Assembly (NCBI GenBank): GCA_963771355.1
Contig: CAVYTA010000006.1
Coordinates: 2,304,001-2,368,000, forward strand
Source of the DNA: an uncultured Candidatus Rokubacteria bacterium
GTDB lineage: Bacteria; Methylomirabilota; Methylomirabilia; Rokubacteriales; CSP1-6
Reading direction: 5' to 3'
DNA: 64,000 bases
A program made the position numbers and the translations under genes. The notes under the pieces are model-generated. The model worked only from the letters and a program-made list of their open reading frames with translations, ran no database searches and had not been told where the DNA came from. Shown piece by piece: positions 5,468 to 24,892 of this stretch; position 1 is the first letter of the stretch, and every line of letters starts with the position of its first letter.

Positions 5468-6689
5468 TTAGTCGGTCGGCAGAGGCCGGGGGAGTAACAA
5501 GGTCGTCGTGAATCCCGGCACGGGCGGGGTCATCCAGCGACGGGCTCGCCCGCGACCGAACGACTGCACCTTGCCTGCTGCCTCGAGCGGGTCGAGCGCT
5601 CGCTGCACGGTCCGCTGGCTCGTTCCCAGCGCAAGGGCCAGGGCCGAGCTCGACCACGATTCGCCGTCGGCGAGGAAGGCGAGCACCCACGCATGCTCCT
5701 CCTCGACGGGCGGGGCCAGCACGACCACCTCGCGTGCGCGGCGCGGCGCCAGCGCGAAACCTCGCTTCGTCGCGCTCACGTCGGCCAGCGTCCGGAGCAC
5801 CGCGCGAAGCCGCCCGACTTCGACGCGCAACCGCGCGCGATGCGATTCATCGGCGAGCTTCCATCCGAATGCCCGCGCCACGAGCGCGTCCCTCGGCACG
5901 TCTCCCGGCCAAGCTTCCCCCAGCGCGCGTGCGAGCGCGAACAACACCGGACGCTTTGCGAGCGAGACCACCTGGCCGGCACGGCGCACGACACGGCGGC
6001 ACGCGTCCACCACGAATGCTTTCGACGCCAGCAGCGCTTCGACCTCCTCGAGCAGCGAGGAGCCGCTCCCCGCCCCTCGCAATCCGGCGCGCCGCGGGCG
6101 TGCTCAGATCGAGGTGTGCGCTTTCTACCTCCGCCGTCAGCGCCGGGATGCGCGCGTGGTGCGCGGCGCGCCTGGCCCGGCCGAGCGCCGCGCGCGCCGC
6201 CTTCGTCTGGAGGCGTCGAATCGCGATTCCCGCGACCACCAGCTCGTGGACGGTCCTCGACGCGGGAGGAAGGGGCGAGGGGTCCAGCTGGGCGAGCGCG
6301 CGCTCGGCTTCGTCGATGCGCCCGATCAGGAGGAGGCGCCGGACCTCGAGATACCGCGCGTACGCGGCGTTGACCCGGTCGGCATGCGCTTCGAGCGTCG
6401 CCCGCGCCGCGGCGAGCGCCTTCACCGGCCAGCCGAGGTCGCGCGAGACGAGCGCGATCTCGGCCTCGGCGACGACGCACCTCGCCCGGGCCACGGGCTC
6501 TTTCGGACCGAAGGCACGCGCCGCCCGTCGCAGGAGAGCCTTCGCTCGAGCGAGATCGCCGAGCTGCGCCATCGCGATACCCCGAAGCGCCAGAGCAGGC
6601 GGGTCGTCGCGCAGGGCAACCCGCTTCAATGCGCCGAGGGGATCACCCGCCGCCAGTGCGCGGGCCGCGGCCGTGATCAGCGAGTCCAT
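5468..6689 (-). CDS. Helix-turn-helix transcriptional regulator with helical N-terminal region (frameshift near 6075-6110)
   Basis: ORFs 5847..6689 and 5468..6082 join into one protein MDSLITAAARALAAGDPLGAL... with an OmpR-like winged helix and a C-terminal HTH (SSSALALALGTSQRTVQRAL). Confidence 0.8.
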
Positions 6690-11649: not shown

Positions 11650-12708
11650 ATGAAGCGTCGGTATCGGGCCGTGCTCGTCGGCTGCGGGGCGCGCGGACAG
11701 AGCCATGCGCTTGGCCTTCTCGCGAATCGGGACCGGTTCGAGCTGGTGGCGCTCTGCGATCGGGACGCCGCGCGCCTCGGCGCGCTCGCGCACACGCTTG
11801 GCATCACGCGCGTCTACTCCGACGCCGAGGCCATGCTCGCCGCCGAGCGCCCCGACCTGCTCTGTTTCGCCACCCCGCCGGCGGTGCGGGTCGAGCTCGT
11901 CGAGCTCGGGGTGCGGCATGGCGTTCGTGCGATCGCGCTCGAGAAGCCGCTCGCGCTCTCGCTGGCCGACGCCCGGCGCATTGTCGCGCTCTGCGCGGGC
12001 GGCATACAGGCCGTCGTCTGCCATCAGCTCAAGCACGCCGGCCATTGGCGGCGGATCAAGCAGATCGTGGAGGAGGGCGGCATCGGGGAGATCCGGTCCT
12101 TCCACGCTACTGCCCGTCCGTCGATGCTGCGGGTGGGCACCCATCTCGTCGATGCCATGCTGTGGCTCGGCGGGGGCATGCAAGCGACGTCGGTCCACGG
12201 CCAGGCTCAGGGGCGCCTAGCTTATCTCGAGGACCATCCTTGTCCTGATCACGCGGCGGGCGTCGTCGAATTCGCGAGCGGGGTCCGCGGTTTCCTCGAG
12301 ATCGGCTCTCTGGCGCCTCGTCACCTCGACGAGGGCGACTTTTGGGGCGATGTGGCTGTCACGGTCCGGGGCGCCCGGGGCCATGCACGCGTGGTGCTGG
12401 GTGGCGGGTGGGAGGCGGTCACGCGGTGGTCCGGAGGCCGGGTTGAAACCGGGCCCGCCGATGTCTCGCCGGGCGAGCCCGAGCATATGCGCCTTCTGGC
12501 CGACTGGCTGGACGATCCCCGGCGGGTGCATCCGTCAAATCTCAAGACGAGCTACCACGGCTTCGAGATCCTGATGGGCCTCGCGCTGTCGAGTCTCGAG
12601 CGCCGCCGCGTCGATCTACCCATCGCCGGGACTCCTGAAGCCATCCTGGAGCGACTCAGGGATGCGCTTCCAGAAGACGAGCGTCCGGCCGCCCGGGCTT
12701 CATCGTGA
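11650..12708 (+). CDS. Gfo/Idh/MocA family NAD(P)-dependent oxidoreductase
   Basis: VLVGCGARG Rossmann motif, FATPP, LEKPLA, VGTHLVD. Confidence 0.9.
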   Translation: MKRRYRAVLVGCGARGQSHALGLLANRDRFELVALCDRDAARLGALAHTLGITRVYSDAEAMLAAERPDLLCFATPPAVRVELVELGVRHGVRAIALEKPLALSLADARRIVALCAGGIQAVVCHQLKHAGHWRRIKQIVEEGGIGEIRSFHATARPSMLRVGTHLVDAMLWLGGGMQATSVHGQAQGRLAYLEDHPCPDHAAGVVEFASGVRGFLEIGSLAPRHLDEGDFWGDVAVTVRGARGHARVVLGGGWEAVTRWSGGRVETGPADVSPGEPEHMRLLADWLDDPRRVHPSNLKTSYHGFEILMGLALSSLERRRVDLPIAGTPEAILERLRDALPEDERPAARASS

Positions 12709-13469
12709 TCGCGCTCCGAGCGGTCACCAAGCGCTTTGGTGGTCGCCTCGCGCTCGACGGCGTGTCGATCGAGGTGCGTGCCGGCGCCGTCCATGTGCTG
12801 CTGGGCTCGAGTGGCTCGGGCAAATCGACGGTCCTGCGACTCATCCTCGGTCTCGTGGAGCCGGACGGGGGCGAAGTGCTGGTGGACGGGACGCCCGTGA
12901 CCGAGTCCACGCGGGCCGGGCTGGTGAGACGCATGGGCTACGTGGTGCAAGACGGCGGCCTCTACCCGCATCTGACCGCGTACCAGAACGTGGCGCTTCC
13001 GGCGGAAGCGCACGGCTGGCCGTCGGCGCAGACTCGCGCGCGCGCGGGCGAGCTGGGGGCGATGGTGGGACTCGACGGAGACAGCCTGCGCGCCTACCCC
13101 CGCGAGCTCAGCGGGGGACAGCGCCAGCGTGTCGGACTCATGCGGGCGCTGGTGCTCGACCCGCCCGTGCTTCTCCTCGACGAGCCGCTCGGATCGCTCG
13201 ACCCGATCGTCCGGGCCGAGCTCCAGGGCCAGCTCGGCCGGCTCTTTGCGGCGCTCGGCAAGACCGTCGTGATGGTGACCCACGATATCCGCGAGGCGGC
13301 TCTCCTCGGCAGCACCATCACCCTCATGACCGCCGGCCGCATCGTCCAGCAGGGGGCGTTCGCCGACTTGGTCGAGCGGCCCACCTCGCCGTTCGTGACT
13401 CAGTTCCTGACCGCTCAAACGCTCGCTCCCGGCCAAACACTCGCTCCCGGGGATTCAGGGGCCCGATAA
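12705..13469 (+). CDS. ABC transporter ATP-binding protein, osmoprotectant/quaternary amine (OpuA/EgtV-like)
   Basis: Walker A GSSGSGKS, MGYVVQDGGLYPHLT, LSGGQRQR, LLLDEP. Confidence 0.92.
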   Translation: MIALRAVTKRFGGRLALDGVSIEVRAGAVHVLLGSSGSGKSTVLRLILGLVEPDGGEVLVDGTPVTESTRAGLVRRMGYVVQDGGLYPHLTAYQNVALPAEAHGWPSAQTRARAGELGAMVGLDGDSLRAYPRELSGGQRQRVGLMRALVLDPPVLLLDEPLGSLDPIVRAELQGQLGRLFAALGKTVVMVTHDIREAALLGSTITLMTAGRIVQQGAFADLVERPTSPFVTQFLTAQTLAPGQTLAPGDSGAR

Positions 13470-13472
13470 CAC

Positions 13473-14966
13473 ATGCGGCCGCTCGTGGCGGGTGCCGCGC
13501 TCGTGGCTCTGCTGCTGCACGGATTCGGCGTCAGCGCCGCGCAGGACGGAGTCATCCGTGTCGGGTCGAAGTCCTTCACGGAAAGCTACCTCCTCGCGGA
13601 AATCGCGGCACAGGTTATCGAGCAGGCTGGAGAGGCCCGCGTCGAACGGCGGCTCGGCCTCGGCGGCACCGGTATCACCTACCGGGCCATCGCCTCGGGC
13701 GCGATCGACCTCTATCCCGAATACACGGGCACGCTCACCCGCGTCATCCTGAAGGACCCGGCGCTTCGCATACCCGAGGCGATCCGCGCGCGCCTCCGGC
13801 CATCGGGGCTGACGATGAGCGAGCCCCTCGGCTTCAACAACACGTATGCGCTCGCGGTCCGCGTCGACACCGCCGAGCGTTTGGACCTAAAGAGCATCGG
13901 TGACCTCGTGCGTCACCAAGAGCTCACCGCGGCGTTCAGCTCAGGTTTTCTGGAGCGCGAGGACGGCTGGCCGGGACTCAGGCGCCACTACGGCCTGTCG
14001 CTGGCTCGCGTACGGGTGATGGAGCACGCCCTGACGTACCGGGCGCTCGCCGGCGGCGAGGTGGATGTCATGGACGTCTTCTCGACGGACGGGCAGCTCG
14101 AGCGCCTGCGACTTCGGATTCTCCGGGACGATCGGGGCTTCTTCCCGGACTACTCGGCGGTGCTCCTGGCCCGCCGGGAAATGGCCGAGCGATTCCCGCG
14201 CACGTGGGCGCGGCTCCGTCAAGCCCTCGAGGGATCACTCGACGACCGGCGCATGGCTGAGCTCAACGCGATGGTGGACCTGGACGGCAAGAGCATCCCC
14301 GAAGTGGCCGCCGCCGTCGCGGGCGCGGCACTGCCGGACGCGCAGGCCAGACCGGGCATCGTGACGGAGATCTACGCCCTCACGCTCGACCACCTGGTCC
14401 TCGTCCTGGTCTCCCTGGCCGCCGCCATCGTCCTGGGCGTGCCGTTGGGCATCGCCGCGGCACGGTTCCGGCGGATCGGTCAGGTCGAGCTCGGCGCCAT
14501 CGGCATGCTGCAGACGGTCCCGGCCCTGGCGCTCCTCGTGTTCATGATCCCGCTCTTCGGGATCGGCAAAGGTCCCGCCCTCGTCGCCCTCTCCCTGTAC
14601 GCGCTCCTCCCCATCGTGCGCAGCACCTACGCCGGGATCATCGGGATCGATCGCCATCTCCTGGAGATCGCCTTTGTGCTCGGGCTCGGCCGCCTCGCGC
14701 GCCTGGTCCGCATCGAGCTCCCGCTCGCCTCCATCAGTGTCATGGCGGGGATCAAGACCTCCGCCGTCATGACGGTGGGTACGGCCACGCTCGCCGCGTT
14801 CATCGGCGGCGGCGGCTATGGAGCGCTGATCGTGCGGGGCTTGGCGCTGGATGACACCGCGACGATCCTGGCCGGGGCCGCGCCCGCCGCGGCGATGGCG
14901 GTGGCGTTTCACGTGGTCTTCGAGTTTCTGGACCGTCTCGCGATCCCGCGCGGCCTCCGCCGCTAA
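13473..14966 (+). CDS. Fused substrate-binding/permease subunit of a glycine-betaine-type ABC transporter (EgtU/OpuC-like)
   Basis: GSKSFTESY, YPEYTGT, NNTYAL, FFPDY binding domain followed by a permease with QTVPALAL and an EAA-like loop. Confidence 0.9.
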   Translation: MRPLVAGAALVALLLHGFGVSAAQDGVIRVGSKSFTESYLLAEIAAQVIEQAGEARVERRLGLGGTGITYRAIASGAIDLYPEYTGTLTRVILKDPALRIPEAIRARLRPSGLTMSEPLGFNNTYALAVRVDTAERLDLKSIGDLVRHQELTAAFSSGFLEREDGWPGLRRHYGLSLARVRVMEHALTYRALAGGEVDVMDVFSTDGQLERLRLRILRDDRGFFPDYSAVLLARREMAERFPRTWARLRQALEGSLDDRRMAELNAMVDLDGKSIPEVAAAVAGAALPDAQARPGIVTEIYALTLDHLVLVLVSLAAAIVLGVPLGIAAARFRRIGQVELGAIGMLQTVPALALLVFMIPLFGIGKGPALVALSLYALLPIVRSTYAGIIGIDRHLLEIAFVLGLGRLARLVRIELPLASISVMAGIKTSAVMTVGTATLAAFIGGGGYGALIVRGLALDDTATILAGAAPAAAMAVAFHVVFEFLDRLAIPRGLRR

Positions 14967-15787
14967 CCTCCGGAGTCGAGGAGGGCGTTGAGGCGGCTGC
15001 ACGCCGCGATGACTTCGCGGTCCCTGCCCGGGAACCACGCCCGGATCCATTGCGGGCGCTCAAAGAAGGCCAGCGGAGGCCGTGCGCGGCGCCTGATACC
15101 CACCCGGAGCACGAGGCCGCTGGCATTGATGAAGCTCACGTCCTCCAGCATGCGTCCCACCCCGGCCACGCCGACGGTGACCGGGCAGAGCTTCGCGACG
15201 GCAGCGATCGAATCCGAGACGCCGCGAAGGCAGAAACCGTGGGTCCGGGGCAGGACCACGGGCGGCAGGGCCTCGAGGACGCTTCGCAGGGTGAGACCCG
15301 AGAATACGGTGTCGTCCACCACGGCGAGCGACTCGGAGGCAGGGAAGCCTTTGAGCCCGCCGGCAAGCTGGGCGGCGAGTGTGGCCGGCACGGTACTGAC
15401 GAGATGATAGTCTCCACGCCCGTCCTCCTCTCGAGTAAGCCCGAGGCGGTGAACGCGCGGGAACCAGCCGGTCTTCGCGTGGAGCGCCTGGGCCGCGCGC
15501 TCGCCGGCTCGGCCGATGCCGAGGGCAAGATCGAATGGGGCATGCCGACCCTGGGCGATGACACGCTCGACCTGCTCGGCCAGCGTGAGGACCACGACCC
15601 TCTCGGGGTCTCTTTTCAGGAGGGCGAAGAGGGAGCGGGTGAGGGCGGCGGCGGGGGAGGCGGGACCGAGACGCTCCGCCACTTCGTCGCTCAGATCGTC
15701 GTGGACGTACAGCAGTCGGGGCGTGGGCTGCGCGTAGGCCCCGCGGTCCGGCTCGTCCACGCCGCGGGACGTGTCAGCCGGCGGCAT
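14963..15787 (-). CDS. Type I phosphoribosyltransferase-like protein of unknown substrate
   Basis: PRPP-loop-like AVVDDTVFSGLT and LGIGRAG; start overlaps the end of the upstream selenoprotein gene. Confidence 0.65.
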   Translation of the reverse strand: MPPADTSRGVDEPDRGAYAQPTPRLLYVHDDLSDEVAERLGPASPAAALTRSLFALLKRDPERVVVLTLAEQVERVIAQGRHAPFDLALGIGRAGERAAQALHAKTGWFPRVHRLGLTREEDGRGDYHLVSTVPATLAAQLAGGLKGFPASESLAVVDDTVFSGLTLRSVLEALPPVVLPRTHGFCLRGVSDSIAAVAKLCPVTVGVAGVGRMLEDVSFINASGLVLRVGIRRRARPPLAFFERPQWIRAWFPGRDREVIAACSRLNALLDSGG

Positions 15788-16310
15788 CCGGCTGGGGCCC
15801 ACGATAGACGTAGTCGCCTCGACAGCGCTCCATCATCGCGCGCATGTCCTGGCGCAGCTCCTCGAGCGTCGGCCGTCCGACATACCACCAGCCGTTGTAG
15901 ATCCGATGAATCGTGAGATCAGGCAGGAGCGAGAAGGTGAACGGCAGGGCGAGGAGACCGTGCCGGAATGCCGGCGGCGTCGCCTCGACGATGTCGAGGC
16001 GTGAGATGACGCGCCGCTCGTGATCGCTCAGGAACGTAAAGGTGGCGCCGAGTCCTGCGCGGAACGCCGCCGAGACCTCGGGCGGGTCCGTCGAGACCAC
16101 CGCGAGCTTGCAGTAGTTGACGGCGAGTTCGTCCTGGAGCTCGGTCAGGTGCCGCAACTGGCACCCGCACTTCGGTCACCAGTACCCGCGGTAGAAGCTC
16201 ACGATGAGCGGGAACTCGCCCGCGAGCGCGGAGAGGCGGACCGGCTCGGCTCGATGATCGGGCAGCTCGAGATCCGGGAACTGCTTGCCGACGGCCAGAT
16301 GTGGGTGCAC
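15774..16310 (-). CDS. Selenocysteine-containing redoxin (AhpC/TSA/peroxiredoxin-like), in-frame TGA at 16176-16178
   Basis: RBS AGGAGG plus GTG 16310 gives MHPHLAVGKQFPDLELPDHRAEPVRLSALAGEFPLIVSFYRGYW-TGA-PKCGCQLRHL..., in frame with ORF 15774..16157. The TGA falls at the first Cys position of the CxxC motif. Confidence 0.88.
16148..16165 (-). promoter_or_regulatory. Putative bacterial SECIS hairpin
   Basis: GGTGCC-AGTTGC-GGCACC perfect 6-bp stem beginning 11 nt 3' of the in-frame TGA, with a G/U-containing loop. Confidence 0.65.
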
Positions 16311-16321
16311 GAAATATCCTC

Positions 16322-17296
16322 CTAGCCCGAAGCGGCAACCGCGAGGGCGAAGTAGCTCTCCGAGTCGGTGTGCCAGGTCTCGAGGCGAAGCCCGGCCTCT
16401 TCGAGCATGGCCTGGGCCCCGGCGCGGCTGAACTTGTAGGAACTCTCCGTCCAGATGTTTTCGTCCGGCGAGATTCGAATGGTCAGCTCCAGGCGGCGAA
16501 GATGCACCACCTGCGTCGAGTCGGGGACGAGGTGCATCTCGATGCGGGCCGCAGGCTCGTTGTAGAAGGCGACGTGCCGGAAGGCCGTGGGGCGGAAGTC
16601 GGCGTCCGCGCCGTGGTTGACGACGTTGAGGATGTTCCGGTTGAACTCCCGGGTGACGCCGCTCGCGTCGTTGTATGCGGCTTCGAGCACCGTGACGTCC
16701 TTGACGAGGTCGAGGCCGAGGAGAAAGCGATCCTCCCGGCTACGGAGGAGCGCGCGCACCTGGGAGAGCAGCCGCAGCCTGGCCGGAGGGTCGAGGTTGC
16801 CGATCGTGCTCCCGAGGAAGAGCACGAGGCGGCGGCCGACCGGGGAGGGCACGTGCTCCAGGTGCCGCTCGAAGTCACCCACGAGGGCGCGCACGTCGAG
16901 GAACGGGTAGTCGGAAATGAGGCGGGCCGCGCTGGCTTGCACGGTCAGCTCGTCGACGTCGATCGGAACGTAGCGCAGGCGATCCGGCAGGCCATTCCGG
17001 CCATCGAGGAGCCGGCGGGTCTTCGACGCCGATCCCGGACCGAGCTCTACGATGTCCTGGGGCTGCAGCTCGCGCATGAGCCGTGGCGCGAGCGTGTCGA
17101 GGAGCGCCGCTTCCGTCCGCGTCAGGTAGTACTCGGGAAGCTTGGTGATGTCTTCGAACAGATTGGATCCGATGACATCGTAGAAGTACTTCGAAGGCAG
17201 GGTCTTGGGGCTTGCCGTGAGCCCGCGGCGCACGTCTTCCTCGATCCTTGTGCGCCTGTCGGTTTCGTTCGTATACGCGTACGCGCGATAGCGCAT
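16322..17296 (-). CDS. egtD: L-histidine N-alpha-methyltransferase (hercynine synthase)
   Basis: LPSKYFYD, PEYYLTRTE, ELGPGSASKT, FLGSTIGN, AAYNDASGVT, WTESSYKF. Confidence 0.93.
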   Translation of the reverse strand: MRYRAYAYTNETDRRTRIEEDVRRGLTASPKTLPSKYFYDVIGSNLFEDITKLPEYYLTRTEAALLDTLAPRLMRELQPQDIVELGPGSASKTRRLLDGRNGLPDRLRYVPIDVDELTVQASAARLISDYPFLDVRALVGDFERHLEHVPSPVGRRLVLFLGSTIGNLDPPARLRLLSQVRALLRSREDRFLLGLDLVKDVTVLEAAYNDASGVTREFNRNILNVVNHGADADFRPTAFRHVAFYNEPAARIEMHLVPDSTQVVHLRRLELTIRISPDENIWTESSYKFSRAGAQAMLEEAGLRLETWHTDSESYFALAVAASG

Positions 17297-17488
17297 TATG
17301 GTCGTCGGCCCGAGGCGGGGGGCATGTGGCGACCCCCGCCGCGGACCTTCGAGGGTAGACTGCCTCGGGTCAACTCGCAAGCGTTGCTTGAGATGCGCGA
17401 CTGGGGTCCGGCGCTTTCGGTCGCCGTGGGGCCCATCCCGACGTACACTTCCTGGCAGTGCTCGCTAGGACCATAGGGAGGGTTCTCC

Positions 17489-18820
17489 ATGGCTGAGACG
17501 GTTGGTGAGCGGCTCGCTGGCGTATGGGCGCGCACGGACCGGATCTTCGAGATCCTCGCGCCCGGGGCCTTCCTCGCCCAGCCGATCGCGCTGCGCCACC
17601 CGTTCATCTTCTATGTCGGGCACCTCCCCGCCTTCGCCTGGAACCACGTGTGCGTGGGTGTCCTCGCACGGCCCTCCTTCAACGCCGCGTTCGATGAGCT
17701 CTTCTCCCGCGGCATCGATCCCGATGTGGACGACCCCAGCCACTGCCACGCTCACCCGGAGATCCCGGATCGCTGGCCGACCGTGGCCGAGGTGCTCGCC
17801 TATCGTGATCGCGTCCGGGCCTCGGTGCTCGAATCCGTGGACGCGGTGACGGAGCGGGCCGGGTCGCATCTCATGGCCCGGGATGGGCGCGTCTTCTCGA
17901 TGGTGATCGAGCACGAGCTCATGCACCAGGAGACGCTCCTCTATATGCTCCAGGAGCTCGCTCTCGACCGGAAGGTCCGTCCCGCCTGGCTCCCGCGCGA
18001 TGTGACCGGCCGCGGCCGACCCCCGGCCACGGTGCAGGTGCCCGCGGGGACGGCGACGCTCGGCGCGGCGTTCACCGACCTGGCATTCGGCTGGGACAAT
18101 GAATTCCCCCCGGCTCAGGTCTTCGTGCCGGGTTTCCGCATCGACGAGACGCCGGTGACGAACGGCCAGTTTCTCGCCTTCGTGGACGACGGAGGATACC
18201 GGCGCCGCGAGCTCTGGGCTGCCGATGACTGGGGATGGAACCGTGAGGAGACCCTCGCTCATCCGCGGGTGTGGACGAACCAGGACGGGCGGTGGCTCTA
18301 CCGCGGCCTCTTCGATCTCCTCCCGCTCGAGCGCGTGATGGATTGGCCCGTGTACGTCAGCCTGGCCGAGGCGCGGGCGTATGCGCGCTGGCGTGGTCTG
18401 CGCCTGCCCACGGAGGCGGAGTTCCACCGGGCGGCTTTCGGCGATCCACGGGGACCCGAGCGTGCCTTCCCCTGGGGGGCAGGCGCTCCCGGGGAGCGAC
18501 ACGGCAACTTCGACTTTCGCCACTGGGCGCCGACGCCCGTGGGCACGTACCCCGAGGGCGCGAGCGCGTGGGGTGTCTACGACCTCGTCGGCAATGGGTG
18601 GGAATGGACCGAGACGCCGTTCGCGGGTTTTGCGGGTTTCGAGGCGTGGATCCCCGGATATTCCGGCTACTCAGCCGATTTCTTCGACGGCAAGCACTTT
18701 GTCCTCAAGGGCGGTTCGTGGGCGACCGCCGCGGAGCTTGTACGGCGGAGCTTCCGCAACTGGTTCCAGGCGCACTATTCGTACGTGTTCGCCACGTTTC
18801 GCTGTGTCGAGAGCCCCTGA
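17489..18820 (+). CDS. egtB: Non-heme iron sulfoxide synthase (EgtB/Egt1-like; DinB plus FGE-like domains)
   Basis: FYVGHLPAF, iron-binding HELMHQE (HX3HXE), RLPTEAE, GNGWEWT, YSADFFDG, RRSFRNWFQ. Confidence 0.9.
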   Translation: MAETVGERLAGVWARTDRIFEILAPGAFLAQPIALRHPFIFYVGHLPAFAWNHVCVGVLARPSFNAAFDELFSRGIDPDVDDPSHCHAHPEIPDRWPTVAEVLAYRDRVRASVLESVDAVTERAGSHLMARDGRVFSMVIEHELMHQETLLYMLQELALDRKVRPAWLPRDVTGRGRPPATVQVPAGTATLGAAFTDLAFGWDNEFPPAQVFVPGFRIDETPVTNGQFLAFVDDGGYRRRELWAADDWGWNREETLAHPRVWTNQDGRWLYRGLFDLLPLERVMDWPVYVSLAEARAYARWRGLRLPTEAEFHRAAFGDPRGPERAFPWGAGAPGERHGNFDFRHWAPTPVGTYPEGASAWGVYDLVGNGWEWTETPFAGFAGFEAWIPGYSGYSADFFDGKHFVLKGGSWATAAELVRRSFRNWFQAHYSYVFATFRCVESP

Positions 18821-18991
18821 CGCCGATCGCGCGCGCGAGATCCTGCGTTTCTCTGCGCCCCGGTTCGCTTGGGCTATGACCCCGCAAGGTTGTGCCGGAG
18901 TCCGGGCCCGAATGCAATCGGGCTCGCGCACCTCGGGTGTATCGTGACCGAGGAGGCCGCCGCCGGGGAGCCCGGCACGGCCGGCCACATC

Positions 18992-20653
18992 ATGGCAGAC
19001 CCGTACCTGGGCCGTCGCGACCAGATGTTCCCCCGGCTGACCCCGGCTCAGATCGAACGGATCTCCGCGGTCGGCGAGCGTCGCAGCGTCCGCTCGGGCG
19101 AGGTGCTGTTCGAGCTCGGGGAGCAAAACACCCGCTTCTTCGTGGTCATCGAGGGCGCCGTCGAGATCGTGCGCCCGGTCGACGGTCGTGAACAGCCGAT
19201 CGTGGTGCACGGCCCCGGCGAATTCACGGGCGAGATCAACATGCTATCCGCGCGCCGCGCCATCGTCCTCGGGCGGGCTCTCGGCGACGGGTCGATCGTC
19301 GTCGTCGATCGTGAGCATCTGCGCGCGCTCGTGCAGCGAGACTTCGAGCTCAGCGAGATCCTCATGCGTTCCTTCATTCTGCGGAGGGTGGCGCTCATCG
19401 CCCACGGCGACAGCGGCCTGGTCCTCATCGGCTCTCGGCATTCGGCAAACACGCTACAGATCAGAGAGTTCCTGACTCGAAACGCGCAGCCGTTCACATA
19501 CCAGGACGTGGAGAGCGACCCGGACGTGCAGGCGCTCCTGGATCGGTTCCAGGTCGGGGTCGACGACGTGCCCGTGGTCGTGTGCGAGGGGGGCCAGGTG
19601 CTGAGGAACCCCTCGATCGAGGCACTGGCCTCGGGGCTCGGCCTGAGCCCCGAGTTCGACGCCGGGGTGACGAGGGACGTGGTCATCGTTGGCGCGGGAC
19701 CGGCGGGTCTCGCGGCCGCGGTCTACGCCGCATCGGAGGGGCTCGACGTGCTGGTGCTCGAGACCACCGCGCCCGGCGGCCAGGCCGGCTCGAGCTCACG
19801 CATCGAGAACTATCTCGGATTCCCCACCGGCATCTCCGGCCAGGACCTGGCTGGGCGTGCGCTCATGCAGACCGAGAAGTTCGGCGCGGAGGTGGCCATC
19901 GCCCGGGGGGCCGTCGGTCTCGACTGCACGTCGAAGCCCTACGCGGTCCGCCTGGCGACCGGCGAAGTCGTGCGTACGAGGACCGTCGTCATCGCCAGCG
20001 GCGCCAGGTACCGGAAGCCCGCCCTCTCGGAGCTCTCGCGTTTCGAGGGAGCGGGCATCATGTACAGCGCCACCCACGTCGAAGCGCAGCTCTGCAAGGA
20101 GGAGGAGATCGCCATCGTGGGGGGCGGCAATTCCGCCGGACAGGCGGCCGTCTTTCTCTCGCAGAGCTCGGCCCAGGTGAACGTGCTCGTGCGAGGCCCG
20201 GGGCTCGCGGCGAGCATGTCGCGCTACCTCATCCAGCGAATCGAAGACAGCTCGAACGTGGTGCTGCGTGCGCGCACGCAGATCGACGCGCTCGAGGGAA
20301 CCGACCGCCTCGAGGGGATCCGCTGGCGCCATCTCGACACCGGACAATCGCAGACGCGCCCGATCCGTCACCTGTTCCTGATGACCGGCGCCGACCCGAA
20401 CACCGCCTGGCTCGGCGGATGCGTGGTGCTTGACGACAAGAACTTCGTCAAGACCGGCGCCGAGCTCCACCCCGATGAGCTCGAAGAGGCGGGATGGCCT
20501 CTCGCCCGCCGGCCCGATCTGCTGGAGACGAGCATGCCGGGTGTCTTCGCGGTCGGCGATGCACGGTCGGGCAGCGTCAAGCGTGTGGCGTCGGCGGTGG
20601 GCGAGGGCTCGGTGTGCGTCCAGCTCATCCACCGGGCGCTCCGTGAGCTGTAG
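18992..20653 (+). CDS. Cyclic-nucleotide-binding domain fused to a thioredoxin-reductase-like FAD oxidoreductase
   Basis: N-terminal cNMP domain (GEFTGEINML), GAGPAG, SSRIENYLGFP, GGGNSAGQ, FAVGD, KRVASAVGEG. Confidence 0.9.
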   Translation: MADPYLGRRDQMFPRLTPAQIERISAVGERRSVRSGEVLFELGEQNTRFFVVIEGAVEIVRPVDGREQPIVVHGPGEFTGEINMLSARRAIVLGRALGDGSIVVVDREHLRALVQRDFELSEILMRSFILRRVALIAHGDSGLVLIGSRHSANTLQIREFLTRNAQPFTYQDVESDPDVQALLDRFQVGVDDVPVVVCEGGQVLRNPSIEALASGLGLSPEFDAGVTRDVVIVGAGPAGLAAAVYAASEGLDVLVLETTAPGGQAGSSSRIENYLGFPTGISGQDLAGRALMQTEKFGAEVAIARGAVGLDCTSKPYAVRLATGEVVRTRTVVIASGARYRKPALSELSRFEGAGIMYSATHVEAQLCKEEEIAIVGGGNSAGQAAVFLSQSSAQVNVLVRGPGLAASMSRYLIQRIEDSSNVVLRARTQIDALEGTDRLEGIRWRHLDTGQSQTRPIRHLFLMTGADPNTAWLGGCVVLDDKNFVKTGAELHPDELEEAGWPLARRPDLLETSMPGVFAVGDARSGSVKRVASAVGEGSVCVQLIHRALREL

Positions 20654-23697: not shown

Positions 23698-24892
23698 ATG
23701 CCCGGGCCTCTGCAGGGCGTCCGTATCGTCGACGCCACCACCGTCGTGCTGGGTCCCCTCGCCACGCAGATGCTGGGCGACCTAGGCGCCGACATCGTCA
23801 AGGTCGAGCCGCCCGAGGGCGACACCACACGCAAGCTCGGCCCCACGCGCAACCCCGACATGGCCGCGTTCTACCTCGCATGCAACCGGAACAAGCGAAG
23901 CATCGTGCTGGACCTCAAGCAGCGCGGCCGGCCACGCGGCGCTGATCCGCCTGATCACGGGCGCGGACGTCTTCGTCCACAACTTCCGGCCCCAGGCGGC
24001 GGCGCGGCTCAAGGTCGAGTACGAGCGGGTGCGCGCGGTCAATCCCGGCATCGTCTACTGCGCGACGTACGGCTTCCGCGCCGCCGGCCCCTACGGCAAC
24101 AAGCCCGTCTACGACGACATCATCCAGGCGGCGTCCGGCCTCGCGTCCCTCCAGGCCCCGCTGGTCGGCGATCCGCGCTACCTCCCTACCATCGTGGCCG
24201 ACAAGACCAGCTCGATGGCGGTGGCCCATGCCCTCCTCGCCGCGCTCTACCACAAGGCGCGCACCGGCGAGGGCCAGGCCATCGAGGTGCCGATGTTCGA
24301 GACGGTGGTCGCGTGGATGATGGTCGAGCATCTCTACGGCGAGACGTTCCGGCCCGCCCTCGACACGCCCGGCTACAAACGCGTGCTCAACCGCTGGCGT
24401 CGCCCCTTCCCCACCAAGGATGGTTACCTCGCCATCATTCCCTACACCGACACGCACTGGCAGGCATTCTTCCGCGGCGCGGGCCGCGAGGACCTCCTCG
24501 CCGACCCGCGTTTCCAAACCCTGGCCTCGCGGCTCACCCACATCGAGCTCCTCTACGAGGAGCTGGGAAAGATCGCCGCCACCCGCACCAACGCGGAGTG
24601 GCTGACGCTGCTCGACGCCGCCAACGTGCCCGCCACCGTCGTCAACACGCTGGACTCGATCCTCACCGATCCGCAGCTCGAGGCCACCGGGTTCTGGAAG
24701 ACCATCGAGCACCCTAGCGAGGGCCTGCTCCGCACCCCGGACATCCCTGCGACGTACAGCCGGACGCCCGGCGAGATCCGCCGCCATCAGCCGCGGCTCG
24801 GCGAGCACAGCGTGGAGATCCTGAAGGAAGCCGGGATGTCCGACGAGGAGATCCGCGCGATGCTCGCCGCCGGGGCGACCGCCCAGCCCTAG
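23698..24892 (+). CDS. CaiB/BaiF family III CoA transferase (frameshift near 23925)
   Basis: LGDLGADIVKVEPPEGD, NRNKRSIVLDLK, then HNFRP, YDDIIQA, PRLGEHS in the next frame. Confidence 0.9.

Follow-up and report, generated by a model that had tools for sequence, protein, structure and literature searches.

What does a single in-frame TGA mean in a gene for a thioredoxin-fold protein that lies directly behind egtD, and what might the encoded protein do there? The question is raised by a 64,000-nucleotide stretch of DNA from an uncultured Candidatus Rokubacteria bacterium (assembly GCA_963771355.1, contig CAVYTA010000006.1, positions 2,304,001 to 2,368,000), hereafter called the window, in whose numbering coordinates are given. 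A preliminary description had proposed an unannotated selenoprotein with a hairpin resembling a selenocysteine insertion sequence (SECIS). The analysis reported here points to a selenocysteine (Sec) protein that is likely a thiol-disulfide oxidoreductase and likely an optional, co-expressed accessory of an ergothioneine gene cluster, a reading to which, from comparative sequence data, a probability of roughly 0.85 is assigned. The elements at issue are as follows.

15774..16310, minus strand: predicted Sec redoxin gene, 178 amino acids, with a peroxiredoxin (Prx)-like/AhpC-TSA thioredoxin fold, the motif U45-P-K-C48 and an invariant P123
16318..16323, minus strand: Shine-Dalgarno sequence AGGAGG, with a 7-nt spacer to the GTG at 16310
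16176..16178, minus strand: in-frame TGA, codon 45, almost certainly read as selenocysteine, within the motif FYRGYW-U-PKC
16146..16167, minus strand: putative bacterial SECIS (bSECIS), with an 8-pair stem, the loop AGUUGC and a G at loop position 2

The plain open reading frame (ORF) call for the redoxin begins at TTG 16157 and gives only 127 amino acids, a truncation that the preliminary description had noticed. Read directly in the sequence, the perfect AGGAGG and the GTG at 16310 open a frame of 178 codons, as had been claimed; the frame ends with a TGA at 15776-15774 and the TGA of codon 45 is its sole internal stop. The AGGAGG (16323-16318) overlaps the egtD stop codon TAG (16324-16322), which suggests translational coupling of the two genes. 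Orthologues were sought in 61 genomes, of which 24 were positive, this genome included, and an ATG or GTG was present exactly 44 codons 5' of the TGA in all 24. The PF00578 match spans the TGA, covering residues 7-131 of the read-through protein with 73.1 bits (cut-off 26). A scan for promoters and terminators gave no signal exceeding chance.

Next, the state of codon 45 was compared across relatives. The 24 kin orthologous loci all carry TGA at this column, two of them being frameshifted further downstream and one being cut by a contig end. A pattern-limited scan of GTDB confirmed 362 stretches, the best 80 of which were kept; this set overlaps the kin orthologues. In the 79 loci covering column 45 the codon is TGA in 67 and Cys in 12, the loci belonging to several phyla and having both halves of the protein conserved. 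All 55 close loci (at least 57% identity) have TGA, the motif being U-P-K-C in 54 and U-P-K-U in one, while the 24 more distant, sister loci carry D or E at position 48 and are evenly split at codon 45, 12 with TGA and 12 with Cys. The CxxC-type site that had been described therefore holds for this clade and fails for the sister branch. Thirteen further loci from a separate search comprised 12 TGA and one Cys, and both states that had been proposed as a check on the column were thus found.

The same codon appears to have shaped the annotation of relatives. The best 120 of 2255 protein database matches are all 105-140 amino acids long and cover 58-71% of the query, as would be expected if gene callers cut the subfamily at the TGA; an annotation correction for the whole subfamily follows. 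Full-length matches in a 50% library are Cys forms, with C-P-K/R/M-D/E as the usual motif (45 of 150 inspected). In P0122, P0127, P0131, P0138 and P0139, which are Cys forms from the wider family, a cold-shock domain is fused at the C terminus.

The genome, which is 99.8% complete, encodes selA, selB and tRNA-Sec (selC) together on contig C7 and selD on C4, all over cut-off, so the four genes that had been suggested as a check are present; its SelD is itself a Cys form. Contigs assembled from four DNA runs, two of which may be the source of this DNA, cover codon 45 without any difference (these being contigs, not raw reads), which agrees with the earlier view that a substitution artefact is less likely here. 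The codon is likewise covered, with no listed difference, by contigs from three RNA-library runs out of four; strand, level and a shared transcript are not readable from them.

The second line of evidence is the hairpin. As had been described, the arm GGTGCC begins 11 nt after the TGA and pairs with the 3' arm GGCACC; the loop between the arms is AGTTGC, and in full the stem has eight pairs. The hairpin energy is -13.9 kcal/mol and the 6-nt loop begins 16 nt after the UGA. The bSECIS rules given in PMC13188914 call for a 3-9 nt loop, a 4-16 bp stem, a G in the first two loop positions, a distance of 16-37 nt from the UGA and a minimum free energy of at most -7.5, and a custom script (not bSECISearch) placed the hairpin within all of these published limits. 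Hairpins placed in this way are rare: under a hairpin rule tuned to the family, and set after the family had been seen, 719 of the 118,271 TGA triplets of the genome (0.6%) pass at an energy of at most -6 kcal/mol and 43 pass at -13.9 kcal/mol or below. A genome-wide hairpin scan for additional selenoproteins gave mostly noise.

Conservation of the element was more informative. A G at +18 is present in 55/55 close sequences, and 52/55 close genes, 12/12 sister Sec genes and only 2/12 sister Cys genes have a model hairpin whose loop is at +17; the stems of the sister Sec genes differ in sequence though the hairpin is kept. Codon choice within the stem is constrained towards rare codons, Arg53 being encoded by xGG in 55/55 sequences against 244/741 for other Arg codons of the same genes, and Leu52 by TTR in 37/37 against 125/1098 for other Leu codons. 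At one position of the stem a compensatory change is seen, 25 of 41 sequences pairing U with A and 11 pairing C with G, a result reached by no shuffle, and the unpaired cells in the covariation table are mostly register-shifted stems. Residues 50 and 54 covary as C/H (33), V/H (6), L/R (9) and R/R (7) in the 55 sequences; since Cys50 changes together with residue 54 as the stem requires, it is not a conserved catalytic residue. Residues 50 and 54 are a clear illustration of protein sequence being remodelled by a SECIS stem. The loop AGUUG, at an identical offset, recurs in the hairpin of a second UGA redoxin encoded by the genome. The SECIS-like element of the preliminary description is thus backed by covariation, by the constraint on codons and by its loss in Cys forms, and comparison of the sequences shows the hairpin to be under selection.

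Some results weigh against selenocysteine insertion at this codon. The folding energy alone is not unusual (z = -0.85; 41/200 shuffles fold equally well) and, not being significant, was dropped as SECIS evidence. A control slid by -3 gave a higher covariation score (0.165) than the named stem (0.153). Presence of selA and selB was discarded as a discriminator between TGA and Cys because it is uninformative, these genes being present in 26/28 TGA-bearing and 9/12 Cys-bearing genomes; neither gene was seen in the remaining 2/28 TGA-bearing genomes, which are metagenome-assembled genomes (MAGs) of unstated completeness.

Two other readings of the codon were also weighed. A real stop, in a pseudogene or split gene, or a sequencing error would be in keeping with the likely frameshifts elsewhere in the window assembly and with the two frameshifted kin orthologues, but it sits badly with TGA at 67/79 GTDB loci in several phyla where both halves are conserved, with the agreement of the other runs' contigs and with a hairpin that tracks the TGA, and is considered very improbable. 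Reading of the UGA as tryptophan or glycine under an alternative genetic code deserves hardly any weight: no support for such a code was found, TGA terminates the redoxin gene and many of its neighbours and so acts as a normal stop here, the only tRNA with a TCA anticodon is tRNA-Sec, and homologues hold Cys at column 45. It is therefore nearly certain, judging from these comparisons, that the gene encodes a full-length selenoprotein in which UGA45 specifies Sec. The preliminary description had named three outcomes that would speak against a selenoprotein, namely a genome lacking Sec machinery, TGC or TGG in the raw reads, or no homologue with Cys or Sec at this position; none of them was found.

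What kind of enzyme the selenoprotein might be was then considered. No NCBIfam family reaches its cut-off with the redoxin. The predicted structure matches BCP/PrxQ folds (Foldseek E about 1e-12, TM score about 0.7). Aligned with 2cx3, the redoxin has Sec45 opposite the Ser of the Prx motif (the Prx Ser/Thr column), Arg41 opposite the Prx Pro, Cys48 opposite the peroxidatic Cys and the invariant Pro123 opposite the conserved Prx Arg. That Arg is required for peroxidase activity in peroxiredoxins, and the Pro at the Pro123 column is presumably the cis-proline of thioredoxins. Within the redoxin family C, D, E or U is found at the peroxidatic column. Relatives with D or E at position 48 leave position 45 as the single redox site shared across the family, which suggests a thioredoxin-type attacking selenolate. 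One point against this assignment is the quality of the model, which has a mean pLDDT (predicted local distance difference test) of 78 and falls below 50 at residues 43-47, the active site.

A peroxide-reducing, BCP/PrxQ-type peroxiredoxin containing selenium would explain why BCP/PrxQ are the nearest solved folds and sequences and why JGI labels the fragments 'peroxiredoxin', and since selenium enzymes can reduce peroxides a side activity is possible. Both the Sec-peroxiredoxins (PxxxTxxU) and BCP/PrxQ have the fold and PF00578 in common with the redoxin. However, the redoxin is without the PxxxT/SxxU motif and the conserved Arg; its Sec occupies the first motif position, at the Thr/Ser column, rather than the peroxidatic one, and Arg41 and Pro123 replace the Prx Pro and Arg. 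A peroxidase is accordingly an unlikely identity, and a thiol-disulfide oxidoreductase is favoured with good confidence on the basis of motif and alignment. The SelL-related family NF040769 and the ResA-like WAxxUGC family NF041054 are also thioredoxin-fold (seleno)proteins, and the redoxin scores only 37.9 bits (cut-off 120) and 22 bits (cut-off 300) with them.

The selenoprotein kind is already known and the gene is a further member of it. A Prx-like thiol:disulfide oxidoreductase with PF00578 and a UxxC/UxxU motif is a listed selenoprotein family (PMC13188914, Table 1), and a 'Prx-like protein' selenoprotein appears in PMC1088965. The redoxin is by its sequence features of this kind, not a true peroxiredoxin, being alike in the domain, the UxxC motif, the downstream bSECIS and the existence of Cys homologues, and the relative L108 has UxxU; the likeness is one of domain and motif. 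The redoxin differs from the table entry in that its subfamily lies within a wider single-Cys C-P-K/R-D/E group, which includes unlisted U-P-K-D forms, and in its linkage, within one branch, to egtD. PMC13188914 cites a MAG from the Methylomirabilota that has 63 selenoprotein genes, and the list for that MAG may include this subfamily. A literature search on selenocysteine in Rokubacteria gave no paper evidently on this subject.

The sister U-P-K-D selenoproteins comprise 12 loci, each with a SECIS (L111, L116, L118, L121-L123, L125, L126 and L128-L131). The UxxD motif is absent from the 2026 selenoprotein table of PMC13188914, and a literature search on UxxD selenoproteins found no paper. This genome also has a UGA redoxin with the motif FYRGYW-U-PFC (G000:C6:327698-328012, plus strand) and a TlpA-like UGA redoxin with FFWATW-U-TTC (G000:C6:1824098, minus strand).

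From these features a mechanism may be sketched. By analogy with E. coli-type insertion, SelB with Sec-tRNA would bind the hairpin, whose loop lies 16 nt past the UGA, and insert Sec. The fold and motif suggest that the Sec45 selenolate, at the first motif position, would attack a disulfide, mixed disulfide or sulfenic acid, and that Cys48 would likely resolve the adduct as a selenenyl-sulfide in this clade; in relatives with D or E at position 48, resolution would fall to an outside thiol. The redoxin would be co-transcribed with egtD. The likeliest substrate class, speculatively, would be oxidised low-molecular-weight thiols or thiones and mixed disulfides, oxidised ergothioneine included in this branch.

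The proposed link to ergothioneine, which the preliminary description had overlooked, derives from the genes that surround the redoxin.

16322..17380 (ORF limits; likely start ATG 17296), minus strand: egtD, histidine N-alpha-trimethylase (TIGR03438, 339.6 bits, cut-off 290.9)
17489..18820, plus strand: divergent non-haem-iron sulfoxide synthase, its closest solved relatives being EgtB-IV
14963..15802 (start uncertain), minus strand: uncharacterised PRTase-like gene directly downstream, whose homologues give weak PF00156 matches
12705..14966, plus strand: ABC transporter, convergent with the operon and made up of an ATPase and a fusion of betaine-type binding domain and permease

The egtD gene lies directly upstream of the redoxin on the same strand. 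The synthase is closest to EgtB-IV structures (E 2e-63) but below the EgtB, OvoA and SenA model cut-offs, and the PRTase-like gene of the window has no Pfam match. A literature search on type IV EgtB enzymes found no paper. The transporter travels with the egtB-egtD cluster in relatives, and its cargo would be ergothioneine. No match over cut-off was found for EgtC or EgtE in this genome; non-specific C-S lyases can serve instead (PMC13674229). A selenoneine cluster was rejected for this genome, SenA (241.9/420 for the window synthase) and SenB (best 105.5/300) both being under cut-off. Like EgtB-IV egtB-egtD clusters, the window has an egtD over cut-off, an EgtB-IV-closest synthase and an ABC transporter; unlike egtB-egtD and senABC clusters, this genome is without SenB, EgtC and EgtE over cut-off, and the window adds the PRTase-like gene and an optional Sec redoxin to what is known of such clusters. 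Following the synthase at 18869-20653 (plus strand) is a gene for a cNMP-binding domain fused to a thioredoxin-reductase-like FAD oxidoreductase. This enzyme is a possible electron donor for the redoxin; a thioredoxin-reductase-like gene is near the redoxin in only 1/80 other loci.

Linkage was then surveyed in relatives. Within 5 kb of the redoxin an egtD is present in 23/80 GTDB loci, all of them among the 54 close U-P-K-C loci, and it is directly upstream in 22 of the 23; an egtB-like gene occurs in 23 of the 80 loci and a PRTase-like gene in 16. In a quick redoxin tree used for branch assignment, a single branch of 27 rows (support 84) contains 23/24 linked rows, the window being counted among these rows. 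The linked EgtDs themselves form two separate clades, with 38-41% and 59-74% identity to the window EgtD, and a single clade was rejected (p-AU 0.00045, for a group named after seeing the tree). Three kinds of synthase stand beside linked redoxins: the EgtB-IV-like enzyme of the window, canonical EgtB in L063 and L079 (576 and 571 bits, cut-off 360), and SenA, which together with SenB is found beside egtD and redoxin in L086 (519.6/420 and 421.5/300). Two EgtD clades and varied synthases imply that the linkage persisted or re-formed across partner-gene exchanges.

In L086 (1470-6080), from Entotheonella, senB-senA is transcribed divergently from a group made up of egtD, the redoxin and a mycothiol-transferase-like gene, and a PRTase-like gene adjoins. 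The other linked branch (L063-L088; for example L082:6698-8029, minus strand, and L075:1405-2112, plus strand) has a GT4 glycosyltransferase in 15 loci, with 8ixp and 8il0 as best solved relatives (E 8e-16), and a HAD phosphatase in 14; neither gene was found in this genome. In G094, at L182:4002-4284, a broken second redoxin copy is convergent on egtD, a layout also seen in L064.

Several results count against a tight tie between the redoxin and the cluster. Twelve further egtD loci, chosen because they are not redoxin-linked, were inspected, and nine have egtB-egtD-PRTase without an intervening redoxin; in seven of these nine genomes (79-97% complete) no redoxin orthologue was found anywhere. 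An obligatory role in the cluster was therefore rejected, and the core is egtB-egtD-PRTase-like, often with a transporter, the redoxin being optional. The cluster link is limited to one redoxin branch, with egtD near the redoxin in 0/24 sister loci. In family f4 the redoxin is present in 16/21 genomes and no egtD exceeds cut-off, one match being partial. No common neighbour of unlinked redoxin copies was found among 80 of 93 picked flanking ORFs, where glutaredoxin accounts for three occurrences. An egtD match was seen in the genome for 36 of the 48 redoxin carriers whose egtD is not adjacent or is lacking, most of their lineages being without a background control.

It could be that the selenoprotein is dedicated to ergothioneine or selenoneine, either reducing the sulfenic or selenenic acid left after C-S or C-Se cleavage or recycling ergothioneine disulfide; the redoxin would then replace the bulk thiol that does this reduction in vitro. 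C-S cleavage by EgtE leaves a sulfenic acid for which a reductant is required, natural thiols being proposed in vivo (PMC4493562), the SenA product is proposed to pass via a selenenic acid (bioRxiv 10.1101/2022.04.13.486033), and mammalian TrxR reduces ergothioneine disulfide in a selenium-dependent manner (PMC8868364). A Sec redoxin in this operon would, speculatively, fit the reductant gap of the pathway. Linkage to egtD of two lineages, beside EgtB, an EgtB-IV-like enzyme or SenA with SenB, points the same way, as does family f1, where an egtD match is present in 7/7 genomes with the redoxin and 10/29 without. Against such dedication stand the nine cluster loci without a redoxin, seven of them in genomes where no orthologue was found, family f4, which keeps the redoxin without egtD, and the 0/24 sister loci, the kin moreover not being independent. 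In the class of G088 co-occurrence is weak, egtD being present in 13/14 redoxin genomes and in 59/87 without the redoxin, and the two genes are adjacent in only 1/14 carriers. This patchy distribution is accounted for at least equally well by a gene of general antioxidant function that resides in a co-regulated operon. A dedicated ergothioneine role is a plausible proposal, though less likely than not; it would give bacteria, in this subfamily, their first reductase dedicated to the ergothioneine/selenoneine system, acting on the sulfenic or selenenic intermediate or on oxidised ergothioneine, a step until now attributed to bulk thiols.

The egtD link offers a candidate substrate for a selenoprotein class of predicted function only and, if true, would name an enzyme for the reducing step of bacterial ergothioneine synthesis or recycling. 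A search for a link between ergothioneine or egtD clusters and selenoproteins found no paper, most subscription journals lying outside its coverage. In the accessible part of a 2026 survey of sulfoxide-synthase neighbours (PMC13674229), the co-occurrence table has no redoxin or PRTase, an absence that split annotation and low frequency could explain.

Some minor observations concern the wider setting. In this lineage egtB-egtD is accompanied more steadily by the PRTase-like gene than by the redoxin; the PRTase-like gene directly follows egtD in 9/12 fetched loci (L174-L176, L178-L181, L184 and L185) and may mark an undescribed tailoring step. In three genomes of family f4 (L034, L036 and L045), another UxxC selenoprotein (LRHYG-U-IFCREH, AhpC-TSA_2 type) is encoded no more than about 1.5 kb from the redoxin orthologue. 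Elsewhere in the window, at 23698-24892 and 5468-6689, apparent frameshifts split CoA-transferase-like and regulator-like genes, these names being read off the ORF list.

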